Shown one piece after another: positions 16,320-45,151 of a stretch of DNA of 64,000 nucleotides (position 1 is its first letter; each line of letters starts with the position of its first letter). A program made the translations under genes and the position numbers. The DNA is from Thermoanaerobaculia bacterium (GTDB lineage: Bacteria > Acidobacteriota > Thermoanaerobaculia > Multivoradales > Multivoraceae): contig OY761158.1 of assembly GCA_963664405.1 (NCBI GenBank), forward strand, positions 224,001 through 288,000, written 5' to 3'. The notes under the pieces are model-generated. The model saw only the letters and a program-made list of their open reading frames with translations, made no database searches and was not told where the DNA came from.

Positions 16320-16498
16320 CTGGACCAGCGTTTCCAAAGTTCGTGTTGCATAGCTCGAGGTCATTCTGTTCGCTGGCCAGGCGCGCCGACGCAGGCATAT
16401 TGGGCAATATGTCGAGGAGCGCGGGGGCGCCTAGCCAACGCCGCCAGCGGGCAGAAGGGGCCGAGATATGTGCGCGAGCTTTGGAAACGCTGGTCTAG
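16320..16498 (+). repeat. CTAG-bounded long foldback element (copy A)
   Basis: Arms CTGGACCAGCGTTTCCAAAGTTCGTG and CGCGAGCTTTGGAAACGCTGGTCTAG. Core is homologous to 40377-40542. The terminal CTAG contains the hemF stop codon. Confidence 0.85.
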
Positions 16499-35982: not shown

Positions 35983-36110
35983 AAAGGCACGTTTCGGATT
36001 CCAACGAACGCAATCGCAGTCCGTCCGCCGAGGCCGAGATAAAGACGAGCCGTTCGTGCGGAGACGATCTCCGCGAGGTCCGCCGTATCGGCCGCCGTTC
36101 GAGCTCCGCG

Positions 36111-37871
36111 TTAGTTGCGCCCGGGCGCGTCTCGTGCGATCCCGGTGCTGTCGAAGTCCATCCAGGTCACGCGCCACTCTCCGTCGCGCTGGTCGGCGAG
36201 CATCTCGAGTCCGAAGATGATGTCCGCACTCGTGATCCATCGCACACCGGTGATGTTGGCGGTGGGGCCCTCCCACTCGAGCTTCATCGCCGTGGTGTCG
36301 ACCTGGGTGCCGGTAGTCGACCCTAGATATTGGCGGAAGATGTCCTTCGAGCCGCCGCTGTAGGATCGGAAATCCTCCGCCAGGTAGGTGAACATCCGGT
36401 CCATCTCCCCGGCCGCCATCGCCTCCAACATCTGGCGGATCATCGCGTCGACGGCCTTCGTATCCTGGCCGCCGCCGGCCCATTCGCGCCGTTGCGCCCG
36501 CTCGGCGGTGCGCGTGGCGGGGAGGTCGGTCGCTTTGGTGTAGCGCGCCGGCAACGCGAAGCCCGTCAGGTGCTCCTCGTCCTTCACGTAGAGACGCTGT
36601 CCGGCGAGCGCCAGGTGCGCCCAGGTCGCAGACGTAGCCACTTCCCAGGAGGCCAGCTCGTGGTAGCCCTCGGGGTCAGCGGCGATGACCTTGAGATCGG
36701 CCGTATCGGTGAGCGCCAGCAGACGATCGCCGACGGCGATGGTGCTGGCGTACGCCGCCCACCGCCCGGGGCTCTGCCACAGCACCTCGCCGGTCTTGGG
36801 ATCGAGACAGACGAAGGTGCCGGCCCTCTTGTTGGAGCGGAAGTAGAGATGGTCGCCCACCCGCACCGGCGAGTCCATGTAGAGCTCGGCCCGTGTCGTC
36901 TTCCACACCTCGCTCACCTTCCAAGCCCCATCGCCTCCCTTCGGCGGCTCGATCCGGAGCGCTGCCGTCCCCTCCTGGTAGCCGGAGAGAATCAGCATGC
37001 CCTCGTAGAAGATGGTGGTGGGGCTGTTCTGGTCGAAGGCGGTCTCGAACTCGGTCGACCACAGGAGCTCACCGTCGCTCGCCCGCACGGCGAAGAAGGA
37101 CTGGTCGCCCATAGTGACGATCTGGCGCACTCCTCCGATGGTGAACGCCATCGGCGACGCGTAGGCGGGCGCGATGCCGTCCGCCCGCCAGACCTCTTTT
37201 CCGCTCGCCCGGTCGTACGCCACCAGCGCTCCCTCGGTGCGGCGCTCCTCTCCCTGCGCCCGGTTGGTGTTGCCGATCGGCACGATGAGGAGGCGTCCCT
37301 CGACGAGTGGCGACGCCGCCGTTCCCCACTCCGGGTAGGGCGGGTCGTAGACGTCTTCGAAGCTCTTCTCCCAGCGCACCGCGCCGGTTTTGGCATCCAG
37401 CGCCAGCAGGCGCTCGCGTACGCCGAAGCTGTAGACCGCATCGCCTTCGGCCACCATCGTCGATTTCGGCCCCGGGCCGTACTGGATCGCCGCCTGCGCC
37501 GGCACGAAGGGGGCCGTGTACGAATGCCGCCACAGCTCTTTGCCGGTGGATGCATCCAGCGCCAGGACGACTTCCTCCTGACCTTGCCGCGCGAGGAGGA
37601 AGAGGCGCTCGCCGACGACGATCGGAGACGACTGCCCCAGGCCGACCGGGACCTTCCACAGCTGTTCGAGAGCGGCGGGGAGCACCTCCGGCAGCTCGCT
37701 ACCGGTTGCGACTCCGTTCCGGTCGGGGCCTCGCCACTGTGGCCAATCGGCCGCTCGTGCGGCAGACGCGAGGGTCAGCGCTCCGACGACGAGTAAGAGC
37801 GTGCACCTAGGAAACGTCATCCACGCTGCCGGGTTCCACTGGAGGCGTCGCGGTTGTGATGCTGGGTCCAT
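36111..37871 (-). CDS. Secreted PQQ-like beta-propeller protein with C-terminal NTF2/SnoaL-like domain (paralog 1)
   Basis: ADWPQWRGPDRNG, repeated ALDAxTGKELW; C-terminal AMAAGEMDRMFTYLAEDF. The start may be the downstream Met (MTFPR). Confidence 0.85.
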   Translation of the reverse strand: MDPASQPRRLQWNPAAWMTFPRCTLLLVVGALTLASAARAADWPQWRGPDRNGVATGSELPEVLPAALEQLWKVPVGLGQSSPIVVGERLFLLARQGQEEVVLALDASTGKELWRHSYTAPFVPAQAAIQYGPGPKSTMVAEGDAVYSFGVRERLLALDAKTGAVRWEKSFEDVYDPPYPEWGTAASPLVEGRLLIVPIGNTNRAQGEERRTEGALVAYDRASGKEVWRADGIAPAYASPMAFTIGGVRQIVTMGDQSFFAVRASDGELLWSTEFETAFDQNSPTTIFYEGMLILSGYQEGTAALRIEPPKGGDGAWKVSEVWKTTRAELYMDSPVRVGDHLYFRSNKRAGTFVCLDPKTGEVLWQSPGRWAAYASTIAVGDRLLALTDTADLKVIAADPEGYHELASWEVATSATWAHLALAGQRLYVKDEEHLTGFALPARYTKATDLPATRTAERAQRREWAGGGQDTKAVDAMIRQMLEAMAAGEMDRMFTYLAEDFRSYSGGSKDIFRQYLGSTTGTQVDTTAMKLEWEGPTANITGVRWITSADIIFGLEMLADQRDGEWRVTWMDFDSTGIARDAPGRN

Positions 37872-38219
37872 CGCCTAAGCCTCCAGTCGTAGACTCGTCA
37901 CGGCAGTACCTTAGTCGAAGAGCCGCCAGAAAGACGCCTACCGTGGCGTGCCCCCGAGCCACATCGGTCGTATCCCCACTGCTCTCTCGGGACCTCCTTA
38001 GGCATATGCTGCCGAGGTGGTAACGTACATCGACAACGTCAATCATGTCAAATGGCCGCACTGGCCAAGAGGGTAAGACATGGGTTTGACGCGTAGTCCC
38101 TCGAGGTCGCGCGTATCTCGGTGTTCCGCGATCGATTTGAGACAGCGACACGCCCCAAAACAGGCATCGAGTGCGTCGCTCCGTTTTGAAGATGATTCAG
38201 TTTTCTCCTAGGAGGATCT

Positions 38220-40187
38220 ATGTCTAGACATTGCCTCGTCGTCGTATGCGTCATGCTCATTTCGGCTGTCGATTTTCTGGCCGCGGCCCCCCAGCACCCC
38301 CTCGATCACCTGACGGCTGCGGAGCACTGGGCCGCCTACGAGATCCTGCAGAAGTCGGACCGCACCGACTCCGAGATGGTGATCGCCTATGTCGGTTTGC
38401 ACGAGCCGCCGAAAGCCGAGGTGCTCGCGTGGCGGAAAGGTGCAACGTTTCGGCGCCAAGCCCTGGTGCACCTGGTGCAGAACGAAGCAGGGTACGAGGC
38501 GGTGCTCGATCTGCAAGCGGGCACGATCCTCGATTGGCGCGACACGCCGGGTCGGAACTACATGCGACTTTCCGGCGAGGATGGAGCCATGACGGAGCTG
38601 CTCCTCGAGCACGACGACATCAAGGCGGCCTTCGAGCGCCGTGGCGTCGCGGACCTCAAACACGTCTATTGCTGGGTGATCAACGAGGGCTACTTCGACC
38701 AGCCGGAAGAGCGAGGCAACCGGGTCGCGCGGGCGGTCTGTGGCAACGGGCGCGGACGGTTCAGGGCGTTTGGCAGCCGATACGAGGGGCTGGTCGCTAT
38801 CGTTGATCTCCGTAGCAAGACGATCCTACGTGTGCTCGACTTCGATCCGATTCCTCTCGCACCGGACAACGGCGAATACGGCCCCGATGCTGTTGGCCCG
38901 GTCCGTGACATAGAGACGCCCATCGCGGTCGTGCAGCCGATGGGGCCTTCCTTCACGCTCGACGGTCAGTCCGTGAGTTGGCAAAACTGGCGGTTCCAAT
39001 TCCGCGTCGACCCGCGTCGAGGAATCGTCGTGTCTCTGGTGCGCTGGGTTAACGGCGAAAGCACACGCATGATCGCCTACCAGGCGTCGATCTCGGAGCT
39101 GTTCGTTCCCTACTCCAGCCCCGAGGAACCGTGGTTGTATCAGTCCTACTTCGATCTCGGCAGCTACGCCAACGTCTTTGGCGGGGTGGCCACCTCGCTC
39201 GAGCGCGGATCGGATTGCCCAGACCACGCGACCTTCTTCGACGCCGTCGTGAGCACCGAGTCGGGCCGGCCGACGCCGACCCCGCGGGCCGCGTGTCTCT
39301 TCGAGCGCGTCACCGGGGACCCTGCCTGGCGCCATACGGGTGATGGCGTGGTGGAGTCACGCGTCCGGCGTGACCTGGTTCTGCGGATGTTCGTTACGGC
39401 GGGCAACTACGACTATCTGTTCGATTACGTCTTCATGCAGGACGGCACGCTACGAGTGCGCGTGGGCGCGACAGGTATGGATCAAGTGCGCACCGTGAAG
39501 GCGGCCGATGCGACGGAGGCTCGGAGGATAGCGCCGGGCGAGGACCTCCACGGCCGCTTCATCGCGCCCCACCTCGTCGGCGTCAATCACAGCCATTTCT
39601 TTTCGTTCCGGCTGGATCTCGACGTCGACGGGAGCTCGAACTCGTTGGCGGTGGACCGCCTGGTGACCGAGCGCATGCCGAAAGGCGGCCCGAGAACGAG
39701 CTTGTGGAACTACCAGACGGCCATCGCCAAGAATGAGAGTGACGCCAAGCGACGGTCCACAATCGAGAGACCCGAGGTCTGGCGAATCATCAACCCCGAA
39801 AAGGCGGGACCCTACGGGGACCCGGTTGGTTATGAGATCGCCGGCGGCCATCAAGCCGTCACCTTGTTGTCCGAAGACGACTTCGTCCGTCGCCGCGCCG
39901 GCTTCACCGAGCACACGCTGTGGGTCACACCGTTCGAGTCCACCGAGTTGTTCGCGGCGGGCGATTACCCCACGGCGCATGCCCCTGGCCAGGGGTTGCC
40001 GGGATGGACCGCGGCGAACCGGGCGATCGCCGGCCAGGACATCGTGGCCTGGTACACGGTTGGCTTTCATCACATCCCGCGGCCCGAGGACTGGCCCTTG
40101 ATGCCGGTTGCGTGGCATAGCTTCGAGCTGCGACCGGTGGGATTCTTCAAACGGAATCCAGCGTTGGACATTCCGAAGGAACACTAG
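38220..40187 (+). CDS. tynA: Periplasmic copper-containing (TPQ) amine oxidase
   Basis: Signal peptide, HPLDHLT, catalytic Asp in YFDLG, GNYDY (TPQ precursor), NHSHFF and GFHHIPRPEDWP Cu ligands; RBS AGGAGG. Confidence 0.93.
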   Translation: MSRHCLVVVCVMLISAVDFLAAAPQHPLDHLTAAEHWAAYEILQKSDRTDSEMVIAYVGLHEPPKAEVLAWRKGATFRRQALVHLVQNEAGYEAVLDLQAGTILDWRDTPGRNYMRLSGEDGAMTELLLEHDDIKAAFERRGVADLKHVYCWVINEGYFDQPEERGNRVARAVCGNGRGRFRAFGSRYEGLVAIVDLRSKTILRVLDFDPIPLAPDNGEYGPDAVGPVRDIETPIAVVQPMGPSFTLDGQSVSWQNWRFQFRVDPRRGIVVSLVRWVNGESTRMIAYQASISELFVPYSSPEEPWLYQSYFDLGSYANVFGGVATSLERGSDCPDHATFFDAVVSTESGRPTPTPRAACLFERVTGDPAWRHTGDGVVESRVRRDLVLRMFVTAGNYDYLFDYVFMQDGTLRVRVGATGMDQVRTVKAADATEARRIAPGEDLHGRFIAPHLVGVNHSHFFSFRLDLDVDGSSNSLAVDRLVTERMPKGGPRTSLWNYQTAIAKNESDAKRRSTIERPEVWRIINPEKAGPYGDPVGYEIAGGHQAVTLLSEDDFVRRRAGFTEHTLWVTPFESTELFAAGDYPTAHAPGQGLPGWTAANRAIAGQDIVAWYTVGFHHIPRPEDWPLMPVAWHSFELRPVGFFKRNPALDIPKEH

Positions 40188-40319
40188 GGCCGGCCGTCCA
40201 GGGCACCCCACCTCACCGCGTGCTCGTCGCTCGGCTCCTCCGACGTACGCCAAAGTACGCCTACGTCGCCTCGCTCCTGTGCCGCGGCGATCTGGGGCAC
40301 CCTGAACGGCCGGCACGAG
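40184..40319 (-). repeat. CTAG-bounded foldback element (copy C, opposite orientation)
   Basis: Arms GCCGGCCGTCCAGGGCACCCCA and TGGGGCACCCTGAACGGCCGGC. Minus-strand apex is GGCGTAC-TTTGGC-GTACGTCGGAGGAG. Starts at the CTAG holding the tynA stop. Confidence 0.75.
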
Positions 40320-40376
40320 CTCGCTTCGAGAAAAGACTTGATTCAATACGTCACGAATGTGAACTATTGGAGATAC

Positions 40377-40542
40377 CTAGTGTTGTGTCTCCGACATGGC
40401 TTGCCAAGAGCTCGAGGTCATTTTGTTCGCTGTCAAGGAGCGACGAGGCAGGCATATTGGGAATATGTCGACGAGTCGCAACGACGGCAGCGGGCAAAAG
40501 GGGCCGAGATATTGGTAAGCCATGTCGGAGACACGGCACTAG
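40377..40542 (+). repeat. CTAG-bounded foldback element (copy A')
   Basis: Arms CTAGTGTTGTGTCTCCGACATGGCTTGCCAA and TTGGTAAGCCATGTCGGAGACACGGCACTAG. Core shared with 16320-16498. Confidence 0.88.
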
Positions 40543-40705
40543 TACATGCGGCCACAAGTACGGTTACGTTTCGAACGACGGTGCGCCTCGCCAGCAAGGC
40601 GCGCGACTGAGGCGCACCTGGGAGTACGTCGCAGGGAGCGTAACGCCGCTGGAGAGGATGCAGCGTCGTTCCAAACGTGTCCGTATTTGTGGCCGCATGT
40701 ACTAG
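40539..40705 (+). repeat. CTAG-bounded foldback element (copy B), sharing one CTAG with A'
   Basis: Arms CTAGTACATGCGGCCACAAGTACGG...GAACGACG and CGTCGTTC...CCGTATTTGTGGCCGCATGTACTAG. Confidence 0.88.
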
Positions 40706-40742
40706 CCATGGGGGCCGAGCACTTCGATGCGAATCCGAAGGG

Positions 40743-40980
40743 CTACGCCCGCAGGGACCTAATCTCGAGGAAGCCCGCAGCCGCGAAGTCGCCGTCGTAG
40801 GCGAGAGCCTCGGTGACGCGCAGACCCTCCATGAGAGCAAAGCTGGTCGCATCGACGAACTCTCCAGCGAGTCGAGGAAACCAACCGCAGAGCGATGATC
40901 CGCCTTTCTCCGTAGGTACGTCCACGTTTCACTGCGAACGTGGTTGCTGGTAATGAAAACGGAGCGCTCTCTTTGCCGGA
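40743..40980 (-). pseudogene. vapC PIN toxin pseudogene, 3' part
   Basis: RQRERSVFITSNHVRSETWTYLRRK, then frameshifted FVDATSFALM...ALAYDGDFAAAGF. Cut at 40980 by the transposon. Confidence 0.8.
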
Positions 40981-41013
40981 TGAGAGTGATCACGGTAATC
41001 GATGGCGGGCTGA

Positions 41014-41361
41014 TCACAGTAAATGATGGTCTGGGTCTTGGCTGCTGTCGCGGATGAGAGTTTCAAGGTACCGGAGGTAGCCGTTATCGAGGGGTCTATC
41101 GCGAATCTCTCGGATGACGGGGAGGAAGTAGTGGAGACTCTGGATGGGGGTTGTGGTGTGTGCCTCGTTGCATCTCCTGGCGGCGACGAGTAGTAAGGCC
41201 GCATTGATGGTGTTGACGGTAACGCCGTTTCGATAGAGGTCTGCGGCGAGGCGGCGATCGGCGTTTCTGACTCGTCCGGTGGTTTGGGGATGTCGTCGAT
41301 AGAGCTCGAGGACGCTCTGGAGGTGCCGTCGTTGTTGCTGGGCGGATGGGGAGTCAGGCAC
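41014..41361 (-). CDS. Transposon accessory protein of unknown function
   Basis: 115 aa, overlaps the ATPase stop, ends inside the terminal repeat region. Confidence 0.7.
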   Translation of the reverse strand: MPDSPSAQQQRRHLQSVLELYRRHPQTTGRVRNADRRLAADLYRNGVTVNTINAALLLVAARRCNEAHTTTPIQSLHYFLPVIREIRDRPLDNGYLRYLETLIRDSSQDPDHHLL

Positions 41362-42196
41362 GGGCTTTCCTGGGAGAGCGCTGGGAGGTAGGTGGCGAGA
41401 AGACCTCGAGGTAGAGCTTCTGATCGATGTTGGGTAGCTCTTCTTTGGCGGCCATGGCGAGGAGCTCGTTGGCCATGTGTGCGAGTACTCTGAGGTTTCC
41501 GGCGGCGTGCTCGGCGAGAGTGGTGATGACCTCGTGGTCGAGGAGACTGGGGTTTCCGGCTTGTGTCAGGGAGTGCTGGAGCCATTCGGCCAACGTCTCT
41601 GGGGGCAGGTAGTCGAGGAGGAGGCGTACGCGGATGCGGCTGGCGACGGGTAGGAAATCGTCTCGTCGGAAGAGCTGTGTGAGTCGGGAGTCGCCGCACA
41701 GGACGACGGTGAGGATGGAGCGTGAGTCGAAGTCCGCAGAGGCGAGGATGCGCAGTTCGGCCAGCACGTTGGCGGCGAGCTCCTGGGCTTCGTCGATCAA
41801 GAGTACGGGTCTTTGATGGGTGGCATCGACATGGGAGAGCCAGGTCTGTCGGAGGGCTTTGAATCCGGCCCATCGGTTGTGTGGATTGAGCGGGACCCCG
41901 AAGAGCTGTCCGAGCTCACGGTAAAAGTCGGCGAGACTGCTCTGTGGCCGCGTGAGGACTCCGGTGCGCACGTCGGGCAGGTGTTGAAGGTGGTGAGCGA
42001 GGGTGCGTAGAGCGACCGACTTGCCGGTGCCGGGATCACCGGAGATCAATGCGAAGCCACCGTCGTGGACGAGGGTCTCCAGGCGCCAGCAGAAGTGGTC
42101 GAGATGCGGGTGTCGCCACAGCGCTTCGACGGGGATGTTGGGGGTAAAGGGGTTCCACTTAAGTCCGAAGAGTGCCAGTAGTTTCTGGTTGTTCAC
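41354..42196 (-). CDS. ExeA/TniB/IstB-like AAA ATPase
   Basis: FGLKWNPF, Walker A GDPGTGKS, Walker B LLIDEAQ; GTGA overlap with the transposase stop. Confidence 0.9.
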   Translation of the reverse strand: MNNQKLLALFGLKWNPFTPNIPVEALWRHPHLDHFCWRLETLVHDGGFALISGDPGTGKSVALRTLAHHLQHLPDVRTGVLTRPQSSLADFYRELGQLFGVPLNPHNRWAGFKALRQTWLSHVDATHQRPVLLIDEAQELAANVLAELRILASADFDSRSILTVVLCGDSRLTQLFRRDDFLPVASRIRVRLLLDYLPPETLAEWLQHSLTQAGNPSLLDHEVITTLAEHAAGNLRVLAHMANELLAMAAKEELPNIDQKLYLEVFSPPTSQRSPRKARA

Positions 42197-43617
42197 GGTG
42201 TCTCCTTTTTGAGGTAGGCGGGCGGGAGCCCGGTGGCGGCGTACTCCGCCATGTGTTTGCGGAGTAGGGGTGCGATGCCAGGCTCCGGGCCTGTCGGCTC
42301 GTCGGTGCTCTGGGGTTGGATCGGGCGGCGGATGCCGGAAGCGTTTCTTGCCTTGTCGAGGGGATAGAGGCGCTCGAGTGGGACGTCGGAGCTTTCGTCG
42401 ACCATGAAGACGGAGCTTTTCTCCCAGCTCTGGTATCGCACCGAGATCCGGTTGAGATGATGGAAACGAGAGGGGATCTCGAAACGGGTGCCGTCGAGGC
42501 TGATGGTGCCGTCGCTTTGGCGCTGGGTGCGCTTTCGAGCGGCGGTGAAGGCGAAGCGCAGCTCGTCCAGGCTGGGGCAGATCCGAGAGACGGAGGGACC
42601 CTCGAGAAAGCGGTCGAGCGGCGTCTGGCCGGTCTCGGAATGGACGCTGCGGTGATACTCCATCTCCACCCAAGCCAGCGTCGCCTCATTGAGCAATGCC
42701 AGATTGAGATCCGCGTGTCCTTCGAGCATGGCGAGGAGGCGGGATTCGACTTGAGAAAAGAAGTTTTCTTGTTTCCCGTTTTGATAGGGGCTCCGGGGCA
42801 ATGTGGTGCGATGGACGACGGAGAGGCGTAGGAGCCCCTCGGTGGTCTCGTCGGCGATCATGGCGCTGCCGTTATCGGTGAGCAGTGAGCGGCACAGTCC
42901 GCGTTTGATGAAGGCTTGGATCAGAGCGTGGATCAGACACTCGGCGGTCTCGTGCAGATACCACTGCAGATGGCAGGTGAGCCGGGAGTGATCGTCGAGA
43001 ATCGCCAGCAGCATCGGTACTTCCCAGGTCCCTGCGGAGCTCGGGATCTTGCGCGAGCCGTGGTGGAAGTCGAGGTGCCAGAGCCCGTTGACGTACTCGG
43101 CTTCGTAGCTGCGCTTCTCGCGCGCAGGGGCACCGGAGGCAGTGCTGCGATCCTTTCCCTTCGTGCGTCGTTGTTTGGGCCAACCGTGCGCGATCATGAA
43201 GCGGCGCAGGGTGGAGTAGGAAGGCACCTTCCCTGGCTCCGGTCGCTCTTTTAGCACCACGTCCAGATTGTCCCAATGGAGCTGATAGCTCCACGTCGGG
43301 TGGGCCTTGTACTGCGTGTGGATCAGCTCGGCGATCCGGGTTGGGATGGCGCGCGCTTGGCCGCTGTCGCTTCTCGATCGGCGTTGTAGCGCCCCGATCG
43401 GATCGCGACCGGCCAGGGCCGTGTAGTACCAACGCTCAATCGTCGAGCGGGCAAAGTACACCGCCTTCTCCGTGATCGGATGGCGCCAGGCCTTCTGGGA
43501 GAGTCGAGACAATTCCACCTGCAGATGTCCCGGTGCGGGAGGCGCAGCCAACAGCTCACCCACCACACTGAAGCGAAACTGCGCCCAGCGTTGTTGCGTC
43601 GAGGCTCGATGGCTCAT
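42193..43617 (-). CDS. DDE integrase/transposase with Mu-like C-terminal domain
   Basis: N-terminal HTH; WHLDFHH, LTDNGSA and NGKQENFF (D-D-E); DGTISLDGTRFEIP. Confidence 0.93.
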   Translation of the reverse strand: MSHRASTQQRWAQFRFSVVGELLAAPPAPGHLQVELSRLSQKAWRHPITEKAVYFARSTIERWYYTALAGRDPIGALQRRSRSDSGQARAIPTRIAELIHTQYKAHPTWSYQLHWDNLDVVLKERPEPGKVPSYSTLRRFMIAHGWPKQRRTKGKDRSTASGAPAREKRSYEAEYVNGLWHLDFHHGSRKIPSSAGTWEVPMLLAILDDHSRLTCHLQWYLHETAECLIHALIQAFIKRGLCRSLLTDNGSAMIADETTEGLLRLSVVHRTTLPRSPYQNGKQENFFSQVESRLLAMLEGHADLNLALLNEATLAWVEMEYHRSVHSETGQTPLDRFLEGPSVSRICPSLDELRFAFTAARKRTQRQSDGTISLDGTRFEIPSRFHHLNRISVRYQSWEKSSVFMVDESSDVPLERLYPLDKARNASGIRRPIQPQSTDEPTGPEPGIAPLLRKHMAEYAATGLPPAYLKKETP

Positions 43618-43723
43618 CTCCCTCTCCTGGGCGCCGATTCCTTCAATCGGCGGCGAGAACAGAGACCTTAAGGCCCGCTTCTCGGCGAGTCGAGACGCAT
43701 CTTCTGCGGGTTTCCGGCGACCC

Positions 43724-44290
43724 TCACACAGCTAGCACAGAGGGCCCGACCAATAGGGCGCGAATCACCGCCAGCACCCTCTCGCCTGCCGGCGACAATT
43801 GACGAAAGACTAGGAGCAGAGAGCCCGGCAAGTCTTGCCGCTGGATCGGCTCGGCATGAAAGCCTTGAAAGCGAGTCATGACCGGGCTGAGACCGAAGTC
43901 CTCTCGCCACCATCTCTGCCATCGGCGCACCGTACGTGCGCTCACCTGAAACAATTCCTGTAGACGATGCAGCCGCTCTCCCTTGGCCCCTTCCCGCAGC
44001 ACTGGGACCAGAAGTACCAACACGCTGAAGTACACCTTCCGGCCCAGAAAACGAAAGGACGCAGGCGTCTGACGACGACGGCACCCCTCCACCGAGCAGC
44101 AATAGCTCAGCCGCAACGAGGTCCTTCTGCGCAGCTCCTCGGGCCCTCCGCGAGGCTTACGTGGATAGTGAGCCTGGTGCAAACGCCCACCGCATTCGCA
44201 GCCTAGGGCGCGAGTCTTCTCCGCTAGATCCTCGTCGAGTCGCAGCAGTAGATCGTAGAAACTGGCATCCTGAAGCAGGGTCTGGTACAA
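43724..44290 (-). CDS. Transposon-associated Cys-rich/HTH protein (DUF6431-like)
   Basis: TTG start with AAAGGAG RBS; CECGG...YPRKPRG...CCSVEGCRRR; VSARTVRRW HTH. Confidence 0.75.
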   Translation of the reverse strand: MYQTLLQDASFYDLLLRLDEDLAEKTRALGCECGGRLHQAHYPRKPRGGPEELRRRTSLRLSYCCSVEGCRRRQTPASFRFLGRKVYFSVLVLLVPVLREGAKGERLHRLQELFQVSARTVRRWQRWWREDFGLSPVMTRFQGFHAEPIQRQDLPGSLLLVFRQLSPAGERVLAVIRALLVGPSVLAV

Positions 44291-44535
44291 GAGGGCTGTC
44301 TCCTTTCGGCCTTTCGTTTTTAAATTCAACGAAAGAAGACACGCCCTCCGAGGGGACGTCAACCCCCGGAGGGCACCTCACTCCCCCCCCACAACAACGG
44401 CGCGCCCGGTGGCCGCGGATGATGCCGGCTCTTTTGCCCGCTTTGATCACGCTATCCGAGGGACCAGTACGCTCTTCCCTCGACTACCGTGACTAGAACA
44501 GAGGCGAATCCCATCAACTACCCTGATCACTCTCA

Positions 44536-44590
44536 CCGGAGCAGCGCAGCAGCATCTTGATGATGCCGGTCCCTCCTCCCAGAATGAACT
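44536..44590 (-). pseudogene. vapC pseudogene, 5' part
   Basis: RRDRHHQDAAALLR joins in frame to QRERSVFITSNH once the element and one CCGGA are removed. Upstream SFW is out of frame. Confidence 0.7.
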
Positions 44591-44662
44591 TGGCGACGGG
44601 GCGCGCCGCATGAAAGAGTGGCTACCGGAGGGCTTCGAGGAGTCCGAATGAGTTAGCGGACC

Positions 44663-45151
44663 ATGTCGAAAGCCGGCGACTACACACGATTGAGCGAGGG
44701 CCACTCCGTGACGGTGTCGGTTCGACGAGCGACCCCGGCGGACGAGGGGGCAGCACTCGAGCTGATGGCCCAGCTTCAGCGCTTCGCCGATAACGGACAG
44801 GATTCAGGGCAAGAGGCGACGTGGCGCGCGGGCTTTCGCCAGGTTCTCGGACAGCGCGAGCGAGCCACCGCGCTCGTGGCCACCGACGACTCGAGGCTCC
44901 TCGGTCTCATCACGATCTCCTTCAACCTCGCGATGCGCTACGGGGGCCTCTACGCTCAGATCGAGGAGCTGATCGTGCACGAGCGTGTCCGCGGCCAGCA
45001 CCTTGGAAGCCTTCTGGTGAACGCGGGGATCGAGGCCAGCCGCGAGATCGGCTGCCGCGAGATCGGTCTCTACGCCCTGGAGCGCAACCGCCCCTTCTAC
45101 GAGAAGCTCGGCTTCGAGTACGCCGGGCCGGAGCTGCGCCAGGCGCTCTAG
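44663..45151 (+). CDS. GNAT family N-acetyltransferase; start may be GTG 44708
   Basis: VRRATPAD, IEELIVHERVRGQHLGSLL, FYEKLGF. Confidence 0.88.
   Translation: MSKAGDYTRLSEGHSVTVSVRRATPADEGAALELMAQLQRFADNGQDSGQEATWRAGFRQVLGQRERATALVATDDSRLLGLITISFNLAMRYGGLYAQIEELIVHERVRGQHLGSLLVNAGIEASREIGCREIGLYALERNRPFYEKLGFEYAGPELRQAL

Follow-up and report, generated by a model that had tools for sequence, protein, structure and literature searches.

A Family of CTAG-Bounded Foldback Elements with a Conserved Centre and Strand-Specific Pairing in a Thermoanaerobaculia Genome

Introduction

[quoted passage not shown] The elements described here were noticed as four long hairpins (A, C, A' and B) in a 64,000-base stretch of DNA from a Thermoanaerobaculia bacterium (contig OY761158.1, positions 224,001 to 288,000; hereafter the window), and they belong to a large family of foldback elements bounded by the tetranucleotide CTAG. 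Like the IS630/Tc1-mariner MITEs, they are small, non-coding and multi-copy, with inverted ends and a TA-centred target in CTAG; moreover, the host genome contains a CTAG-bounded IS630-type element, whose ends are similar to the arms of B. Unlike these MITEs, each member of the present family is one full hairpin with a conserved centre, covarying arms and wobble pairs on one strand. The family also spans phyla, and for most of its arm families the same genome offers no transposase ends that match.

Other described systems share some of these features. In the part of Bertels and Rainey 2011 (PMC3116915) that treats the REPINs and their RAYT transposases, REPINs form, like the present elements, long hairpins of ~100 bases or more with compensatory changes and a constrained length; they persist in the long term, and a single-stranded form is proposed. 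In that same part, however, the REPs are conserved at the ends, the spacer is variable and a single RAYT gene adjoins REPs, whereas the present family has a conserved centre, CTAG on both sides, no adjoining Y1 gene and no GTAG/CGTC tag. Palindromes derived from IS200/IS605 have separate subterminal hairpins at each end, insert 3' of a tetra- or pentanucleotide without duplicating it and have a TnpA close by, unlike the single full-length hairpin seen here, with the same tetranucleotide on both sides and no Y1 gene nearby; formally, insertion without duplication may nevertheless hold here too.

MITEPsy1 of Pseudomonas syringae, an IS5-related element, likewise inserts at CTAG or YTAA and has the tetranucleotide on both sides. 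As characterized in the section of PMC3189936 devoted to it, it differs in being 100 bases long, with 18-base terminal repeats like those of its parent ISPsy2, without a full hairpin or a centre conserved across families. The bcr1 element of the Bacillus cereus group, according to the lines on it in PMC3184786, is comparable as a transposon-like repeat of ~155 bases with direct repeats and compensatory changes, but its direct repeats have 5 bases, it is reported to be transcribed, it belongs to another phylum and it has no sequence in common with the present family. Chunjie, a MITE of Geobacter uraniireducens, has a very stable predicted folding, and its order is also among the carriers of the present family; from the description in the relevant portion of PMC3184786 (A+T-rich, 178-235 bases, 21-base terminal repeats, 9-base direct repeats) it is set apart.

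No prior description of the family was found in literature searches; supplements of Geobacter genome papers with unnamed multicopy palindromic sequences may contain members. We know of no settled account of how MITEs reach a high copy number with cut-and-paste enzymes. A single-stranded fold-back intermediate was reportedly proposed in older work on fish MITEs, with little sequence evidence behind the proposal. Even if a DDE transposase moves the copies, the family would be the first sequence-level evidence of MITE amplification via strand-specific single-stranded fold-back. It also constitutes a natural experiment: with many arm families, one centre and wobbles all on the same strand, a single-strand requirement becomes directly testable. 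For the annotation of soil and sediment genomes, the family is relevant because it reaches hundreds of copies per genome, is absent from Rfam and causes breaks in metagenome assemblies, and because about four in ten copies (72/184) lie on TAG stop codons. The covariance model R1 described below could mark the family in assemblies of Acidobacteriota, Gemmatimonadota and Desulfuromonadales.

Foldback Elements of the Window and the Host Genome

The host genome (G000) belongs to the Acidobacteriota and is a single contig of 6.78 Mb with 62.6% G+C, in which the window corresponds to G000:C1:224001-288000. A genome-wide profile of the common centre detected 252 copies of this central module, split 128 to 124 between the two strands. 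Copy ends were set by a CTAG-pair rule (CTAG...CTAG with paired 20-base ends), and 184 of the 252 copies have such ends; 143 of these are 165-168 bases long. Among the remaining 68 are copies in which CTAG is altered by one base (as in A), others that are truncated and others that carry insertions. BLAST against the same genome detected over 130 relatives of A at full length; for A' it gave 16 copies that are close and 11 that are more distant, for B about 15 and for C about 19. CTAG stands at either side of the copies of A, A' and B, whose flanks are unrelated.

Clustering of the 184 copies resulted in 10 groups (106, 19, 14, 10, 10, 9, 7, 7, 1 and 1 copies), which differ in their arms of ~58 bases and have a centre of ~50 bases in common. 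The B family is additional to these groups, its centre being too diverged to be found with the central-module profile. The arms mostly start with CTAGTG or CTAGTA and have GT at positions 11-12, and in several families RAAGTTC is present at arm positions 17-23. An earlier note on this DNA had called the arms unrelated. They do differ between families, but terminal positions and motifs recur, and the word is too strong. One hybrid element (G000:C1:3644743-3644874) is of family F01 on its left and of family F00 on its right, the two halves meeting at the conserved centre, which suggests recombination between families at the shared module.

Long hairpins are present at all four places where the earlier note had put them (Table 1). 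Folded as RNA and compared with shuffled controls, A reaches -113.4 kcal/mol (z -10.3), A' -107.4 kcal/mol (z -13.8) and B -114.3 kcal/mol (z -13.7), and the shorter C reaches -71.3 kcal/mol (z -4.5). With DNA folding parameters, the values for A' are -57.3 on the plus strand and -42.2 on the minus strand. The common apex within its CAAGG...AACG frame, also reported in that note, is seen in the alignments, and R1 matches all four hairpins: A' with 161.6 bits on the plus strand, A with 132.6 bits plus vs. 38.3 minus (with a 13-base insertion 3' of the apex), B with 116.5 plus vs. 46.5 minus and C with 43.2 minus vs. 11 plus. The last score, together with a fold that is better by 23.9 on the minus strand, agrees with the inverted position that had been ascribed to C.

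As for the ends, CTAG or a one-base variant is indeed found for A, A', B and C: the left end of A is CTGG and the right end of C is CGAG. However, the hairpin C is only part of a 197-base repeat (40184-40380), consisting of the hairpin and a 57-base tail up to the next CTAG. This whole unit recurs in the genome, since five BLAST matches of the query 40150-40400 span query positions 34/35 to 231-251. A' and B abut with one common CTAG, as had been noted, which is expected if one of them inserted into the duplicated target of the other. At the other side of the cluster, the copper amine oxidase gene (38220-40187) has as its stop codon the TAG at 40185-40187, within the CTAG at 40184.

Covariation and Strand-Specific Folding

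Thirteen representative copies spanning the arm families were aligned (alignment A1), and R1 was built from this alignment. Among the 55 predicted pairs, 41 keep pairing through changes on both sides, and this covariation extends from the ends of the element to the apical stem. In total, 95.1% of the A1 cells are paired; shuffling the columns lowers this to 70.0%, and shifting the partners by 1-3 columns to 32-42%. A second alignment, of copies from assemblies with different taxon labels, gives a similar picture: 39/55 pairs change on both sides. Changes in the arms are compensated in both alignments, and the structure is kept by covariation, in line with the differing but self-paired arms noted for the four copies of the window. 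Centre fixed and arms variable is the reverse of the conservation in a classical MITE, a contrast that had also been drawn from the window, and of that in a REPIN.

The pairing is also strand-specific. A1 contains 66 G-U cells vs. 3 A-C cells, and the alignment across labels about 62 vs. about 13. Among the arm mismatches of the family consensuses, the transitions comprise 41 wobbles on the strand of the central module and 7 on the other strand, next to 37 transversions and 22 gap positions. As some of the 41 wobbles are shared by descent among families with the same inner arms, the family-specific outer arms were counted apart, which leaves about 28 vs. 7 wobbles (read by eye from the alignments). 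All 184 genomic copies fold better on the central-module strand, with a mean difference of -23.8 kcal/mol; C, on the minus strand, is the mirror case. In the relatives G028 and G004, 20 loci were examined, and the nine with intact CTAG pairs all show the same fold asymmetry. The strand-specific pairing proposed for the window is therefore a property of the genomic copies at large.

Low-frequency variants within the families have only a weak excess of wobbles (87 vs. 58, p 0.02), which points to selection at spread rather than to mutation in place. The wobble bias is mainly a property of the copies that founded the families.

Insertion at CTAG and Genomic Placement

To find empty sites, the flanks of each of the 184 copies were joined through one CTAG and searched against the genome. 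Three insertion sites have uninterrupted paralogous sequence, two with a single CTAG and one with CTAA. The two single-CTAG sites lie in another abundant repeat, and the closest paralogue of the CTAA site is 92% identical. Furthermore, abutting elements share one CTAG, including at junctions of foldback elements with full insertion sequences. From these empty sites and shared junctions it follows that the hairpins are non-autonomous transposons: each copy is an insertion at CTAG, with CTAG on both sides afterwards. The earlier note's multi-copy mobile family is hence recovered, with 252 copies and single-CTAG paralogous empty sites. As in MITEs, the copies are small, non-coding, numerous and dispersed, with unrelated flanks and inverted ends, and the paralogous empty sites indicate a target-site duplication. 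Since the CTAG target is palindromic, a duplication of 2 bases looks the same as one of 4. A foldback variant of genome G176 with the same centre (G176:C1:4365755-4365920) has TTAA at both ends, which makes TA the constant centre of the target.

CTAG is rare in the host genome: 7,502 sites are present vs. about 23,200 expected from the base composition. Gene positions were taken from rough gene calls, outside which only 16.6% of the genome lies, and 3,452 of the 7,502 sites fall outside these calls. The CTAG at the end of an element supplies the TAG stop codon of a rough-called gene in 72 of 184 elements. The elements are also enriched between convergent genes, where 77 of 221 intergenic copies are located, compared to 20% of all intergenic spaces. 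Metagenome contigs from four DNA runs yielded no usable empty-site allele over 36000-45000; these contigs break at the repeats, and where they are joined the sides are short (20-36 bases) and compatible with other copies.

Distribution beyond the Host Genome

Full-length matches to R1 (~166 bases) were found in 64 of 121 genomes of the order, belonging to 43 of 58 genera, the host genome included. In a sample of 150 genomes across the phylum, 37 have matches (35/148 when G000 and G078 are left out), and the distant matches show the same centre and CTAGTG-type ends in alignments. One genome of another class (G192) carries an A' copy that is 98% identical, and its five copies, this one included, are all grouped within 170 kb of one 1.6-Mb contig. 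This cluster reflects either horizontal transfer of the region or a chimeric assembly. Plasmid and phage collections contained no match to A'.

A motif scan with one genome per species gave at least 90 loci, where about a hundred chance matches to the 17 specified bases would be expected (an estimate). Among the matches listed, 73 of 80 loci have an R1 match. Besides Thermoanaerobaculia and other Acidobacteriota labels, these 73 include, again among the matches listed, six assemblies of Gemmatimonadota or Longimicrobiales, six of Desulfuromonadales, Geobacteraceae, Desulfuromonas or Oryzomonas, and one of Myxococcota. The other seven listed loci, without R1 match, are labelled Steroidobacteraceae, delta proteobacterium, Alphaproteobacteria, Brucella tritici, Rubellimicrobium, Chromatiaceae and, in one case, Acidobacteriota. 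Taxon labels are the depositors' own, and single assemblies may be mis-binned; with six assemblies per group, mis-binning is unlikely to explain all of them. The alignment across labels shows the same centre, ends and length.

Mode of Movement

What the families keep is the terminal TA-centred tetranucleotide, a few arm positions, pairing over the full length and the centre of ~50 bases. Our best explanation, held tentatively and with somewhat less than even confidence, is that the hairpins are a MITE-like superfamily of ~166 bases targeting the TA in CTAG, moved in trans probably by an IS630-type transposase, with a single-strand folding requirement. A TA-targeting DDE transposase, most likely of the IS630/Tc1-mariner type and duplicating the TA inside CTAG, would act on the copies in trans. 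For a copy to spread, one particular strand would need to be able to fold back on itself while single-stranded, for instance at a replication fork, and the conserved central module may be a cis-acting site in this single-strand step.

The ends and the target of the foldback elements are of the sort that DDE transposases acting on TA produce. The IS630 type is favoured because of the CTAG boundaries, the arms of B and the co-occurrence with DDE_3 at phylum level. A preference of IS630 for the TA in 5'-CTAG-3' is stated in a title in the reference list of PMC2170065. The host genome carries a CTAG-bounded IS630-type element of 1,245 bases with helix-turn-helix (HTH) and DDE_3 frames, and a second copy has just 1,036 bases in common with it. 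The arm ends were compared to the ends of the 1,245-base element over the 32 positions after CTAG; random post-CTAG sites served as the null (mean 7.8, 99.9th percentile 17). B matches at 19 positions, F08 at up to 18, F00 at up to 16 and F06 at 15. In the phylum sample of 149 other genomes, DDE_3 is found in 23 of 36 genomes with the element vs. 30 of 113 without (chi-square about 16.6; 1 df, calculated by hand), and the control DDE_Tnp_1 in 23/36 vs. 55/113 (about 2.5). Leaving out G078 gives 22/35 for both domains, with chi-square values of about 15 and about 2. Between the central module and the interior of the IS630-type element, the exact matches have only 11 and 9 bases and are in the wrong order; they were treated as chance.

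A number of observations weigh against this explanation. The likeness to the IS630-type ends is weak for F08, F06 and F00, and arm families other than these three and B match at background level. In G028 and G176, CTAG likewise bounds the IS630-type elements, whose ends are unlike the foldback arms of the same genomes. At phylum level, the association has kinship, genome size and assembly quality as confounders. In a set of 30 close relatives, grouped by BLAST, DDE_3 is present in 3 of 10 genomes with the element vs. 7 of 20 without, and the element-rich G004 has no DDE_3. A transposase reading terminal repeats would leave the opposite pattern of conservation: here, the arm sequence is mostly free and the centre is fixed, which fits an enzyme reading centre and structure better. 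Cut-and-paste of double-stranded DNA by a DDE enzyme provides no reason for a strand-specific fold. A 4-base CTAG duplication of the IS5 type would fit the ends equally well, and an intact CTAG-bounded IS5/IS1182-type element is present in eight copies. Finally, the orientation bias relative to replication that is seen for the 252 hits (150 vs. 102 by local GC skew; 152 vs. 100 by replichore, p 0.001) is not significant in the subset of 184 copies or when counted by family. This bias has no switch at the GC-skew extremes. The cumulative GC skew of the host is lowest at 2.74 Mb and highest at 6.76 Mb, so that the replichores are unequal (about 4.0 and 2.8 Mb), and the rough-called genes have almost no strand bias relative to the skew.

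It is possible, if on the whole doubtful, that the family represents a new class of structure-dependent mobile DNA. One conserved factor, encoded by the host or by an element, would read the 50-base module on the folded strand and move or copy the hairpin between CTAG sites. A single factor of this type would explain why centre, length and pairing are found across at least three phyla despite the turnover of the arms, and the likeness to IS630 ends would then be secondary.

An alternative is movement as single-stranded DNA by a structure-specific enzyme encoded elsewhere in the genome, HUH Y1/RAYT-like or another nuclease. It would read the centre on the folded strand, with cleavage at the pair of CTAGs where the hairpin has its foot. 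We consider this rather unlikely. With one enzyme for all arm families, the arms would be free to drift as long as they pair, and this agrees with centre, ends, length and pairing being kept while arms turn over, in the order, in the wider phylum and in assemblies that bear the labels of two other phyla. The strong one-strand bias of the wobble pairs and the exact coincidence of the mobile unit with the hairpin point in the same direction. If the left CTAG is the target and the right CTAG the end of the element, the same empty sites result. The host genome also has 13 Y1_Tnp-like frames. However, the nearest of these lies 772 bases from an element and the others 2-40 kb, where random points give a median of 9.9 kb; linkage to Y1/RAYT genes was rejected for this reason, and no connection to the REP/REPIN or IS200/IS605 systems suggested by the earlier note was found. 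Y1_Tnp is near-ubiquitous (26 of 30 relatives), yet it is absent from the element-rich G004. The foldable strand is, if anything, rarer on the lagging-strand template (55/132 in the positive-skew region), a stem of 80 base pairs places the apex far from the cut sites, and the conserved CTAGTG and the GT at 11-12 look like protein-read terminal repeats.

An IS91-type element, of the HUH Y2 class, bears on the same alternative from both sides. A Y2 transposase and a tyrosine recombinase, together 2,536 bases, are located exactly in the apical loop of foldback elements at two unrelated loci, which counts in its favour; a copy with 2.5 kb of apical cargo at two loci counts against it. The parts belonging to the foldback element are identical at both loci (170/170), and the cargo is identical at 2,465 of 2,536 positions (97.2%). 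Four IS91-type loci of G028, G007 and G002 have no element halves detected with R1, and the cargo with its integrase was therefore rejected as autonomous parent; it is read as an insertion into the element. Y2_Tnp is found in 5 of 10 close relatives with the element vs. 7 of 20 without. The Y2 transposase genes of G028 stand in tandem arrays with a spacing of about 1.7 to 4.1 kb.

A DDE transposase of the IS5/IS1182 type, with duplication of all of CTAG (YTAR), could also move the same non-autonomous element; we regard this as unlikely. An IS5/IS1182-type element is present in the host genome, intact and CTAG-bounded, with a 439-residue frame containing DUF772 and DDE_Tnp_1; seven of its eight copies have 1,562 bases and one has 1,565. 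It has CTAG junctions in common with foldback elements, YTAR agrees with the TTAA ends in G176, and duplication of CTAG or YTAA by an IS5-related MITE is published (in the part of PMC3189936 on that element). On the other hand, the arms match its ends at no more than 15 of 32 positions, no better than background, the co-occurrence with DDE_Tnp_1 is weak (the 23/36 vs. 55/113 given above), and the strand bias is left unexplained, as it is with IS630. Two IS1380-like CTAG-bounded elements are found in the host genome as well. The start of the 78-base insert that defines group F03 resembles, by eye, the terminal repeat of the IS5/IS1182-type element.

The weakest alternative, a structured RNA (a small RNA or a cis-acting element of transcripts) whose selection would account for the G-U pairs and the apex, is improbable: G-U pairs with compensatory changes are a classical RNA signature, the 72 of 184 copies directly on TAG stop codons would be in 3' untranslated regions, and bcr1 is a precedent for RNA-level compensatory changes in a transposon-like repeat (in the lines on it in PMC3184786), but the elements have no sigma-70-like promoter or intrinsic terminator, a full-length RNA would have to start outside the mobile unit, whose first base is also that of the hairpin, and Rfam has no match in the window at gathering thresholds or, at a permissive threshold, in 40100-40800 (best E 2.2; 17.1 bits vs. 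a gathering threshold of 61). Orientation relative to neighbouring genes is random between co-directional genes (56 same, 54 opposite), at stop codons (34 vs. 44) and within 60 bases downstream of a gene (64 vs. 68). This argues against a role in host transcripts, which is unlikely.

Table 1. Locations of the foldback elements and of other features. Locations without a genome identifier are window positions.
Feature	Location	Strand	Description	Basis
Element A	16320..16498	+	179-base variant of F00, the largest arm family	fold, R1 score
Element C, hairpin	40184..40319	-	divergent relative with shorter arms; apex and wobble pairs on the minus strand	
C-repeat tail	40320..40380	-	57 bases and the next CTAG	genome BLAST
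Element A'	40377..40542	+	166 bases, arm family F04, both ends CTAG	fold, R1 score
CTAG common to A' and B	40539..40542	none		sequence
Element B	40539..40705	+	167 bases, both ends CTAG	fold, R1 score
IS5/IS1182-type element	G000:C1:378432-379993 and seven other loci			
Foldback elements with IS91-type cargo	G000:C1:6272417-6275122 and 6758844-6761549		one arm subfamily; AAT on both sides of the cargo	
Y2 arrays of G028	G028:C5:1643529-1651032 and G028:C2:1032779-1040211			
Copies in G192	G192:C5:1392352-1560498			
AT-rich/G+C-rich hairpin repeat, examples	G000:C1 5821394-5822189, 4271418-4271981, 1965000-1965440			

Neighbouring Genes and Other Repeats

The minus strand next to the hairpins of the window (40929-44362) has three frames: that at 42193-43617 encodes an rve integrase with HTH, that at 41354-42673 an AAA_22 ATPase and that at 43724-44362 an HTH protein. 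This region looks like a TniA/TniB-type or Mu-like transposition module. Over 40981-44535, the metagenome contigs of the four runs are about three times as deep as over the left flank and have variants of their own; hence, this segment looks like a mobile element that is multi-copy or shared between strains.

The host genome contains another very abundant short repeat, with more than 100 matches, which combines CTAG sites with two hairpins, a small AT-rich one and a G+C-rich one. This repeat often occurs in tandem arrays (Table 1), and two foldback elements are inserted in its copies.

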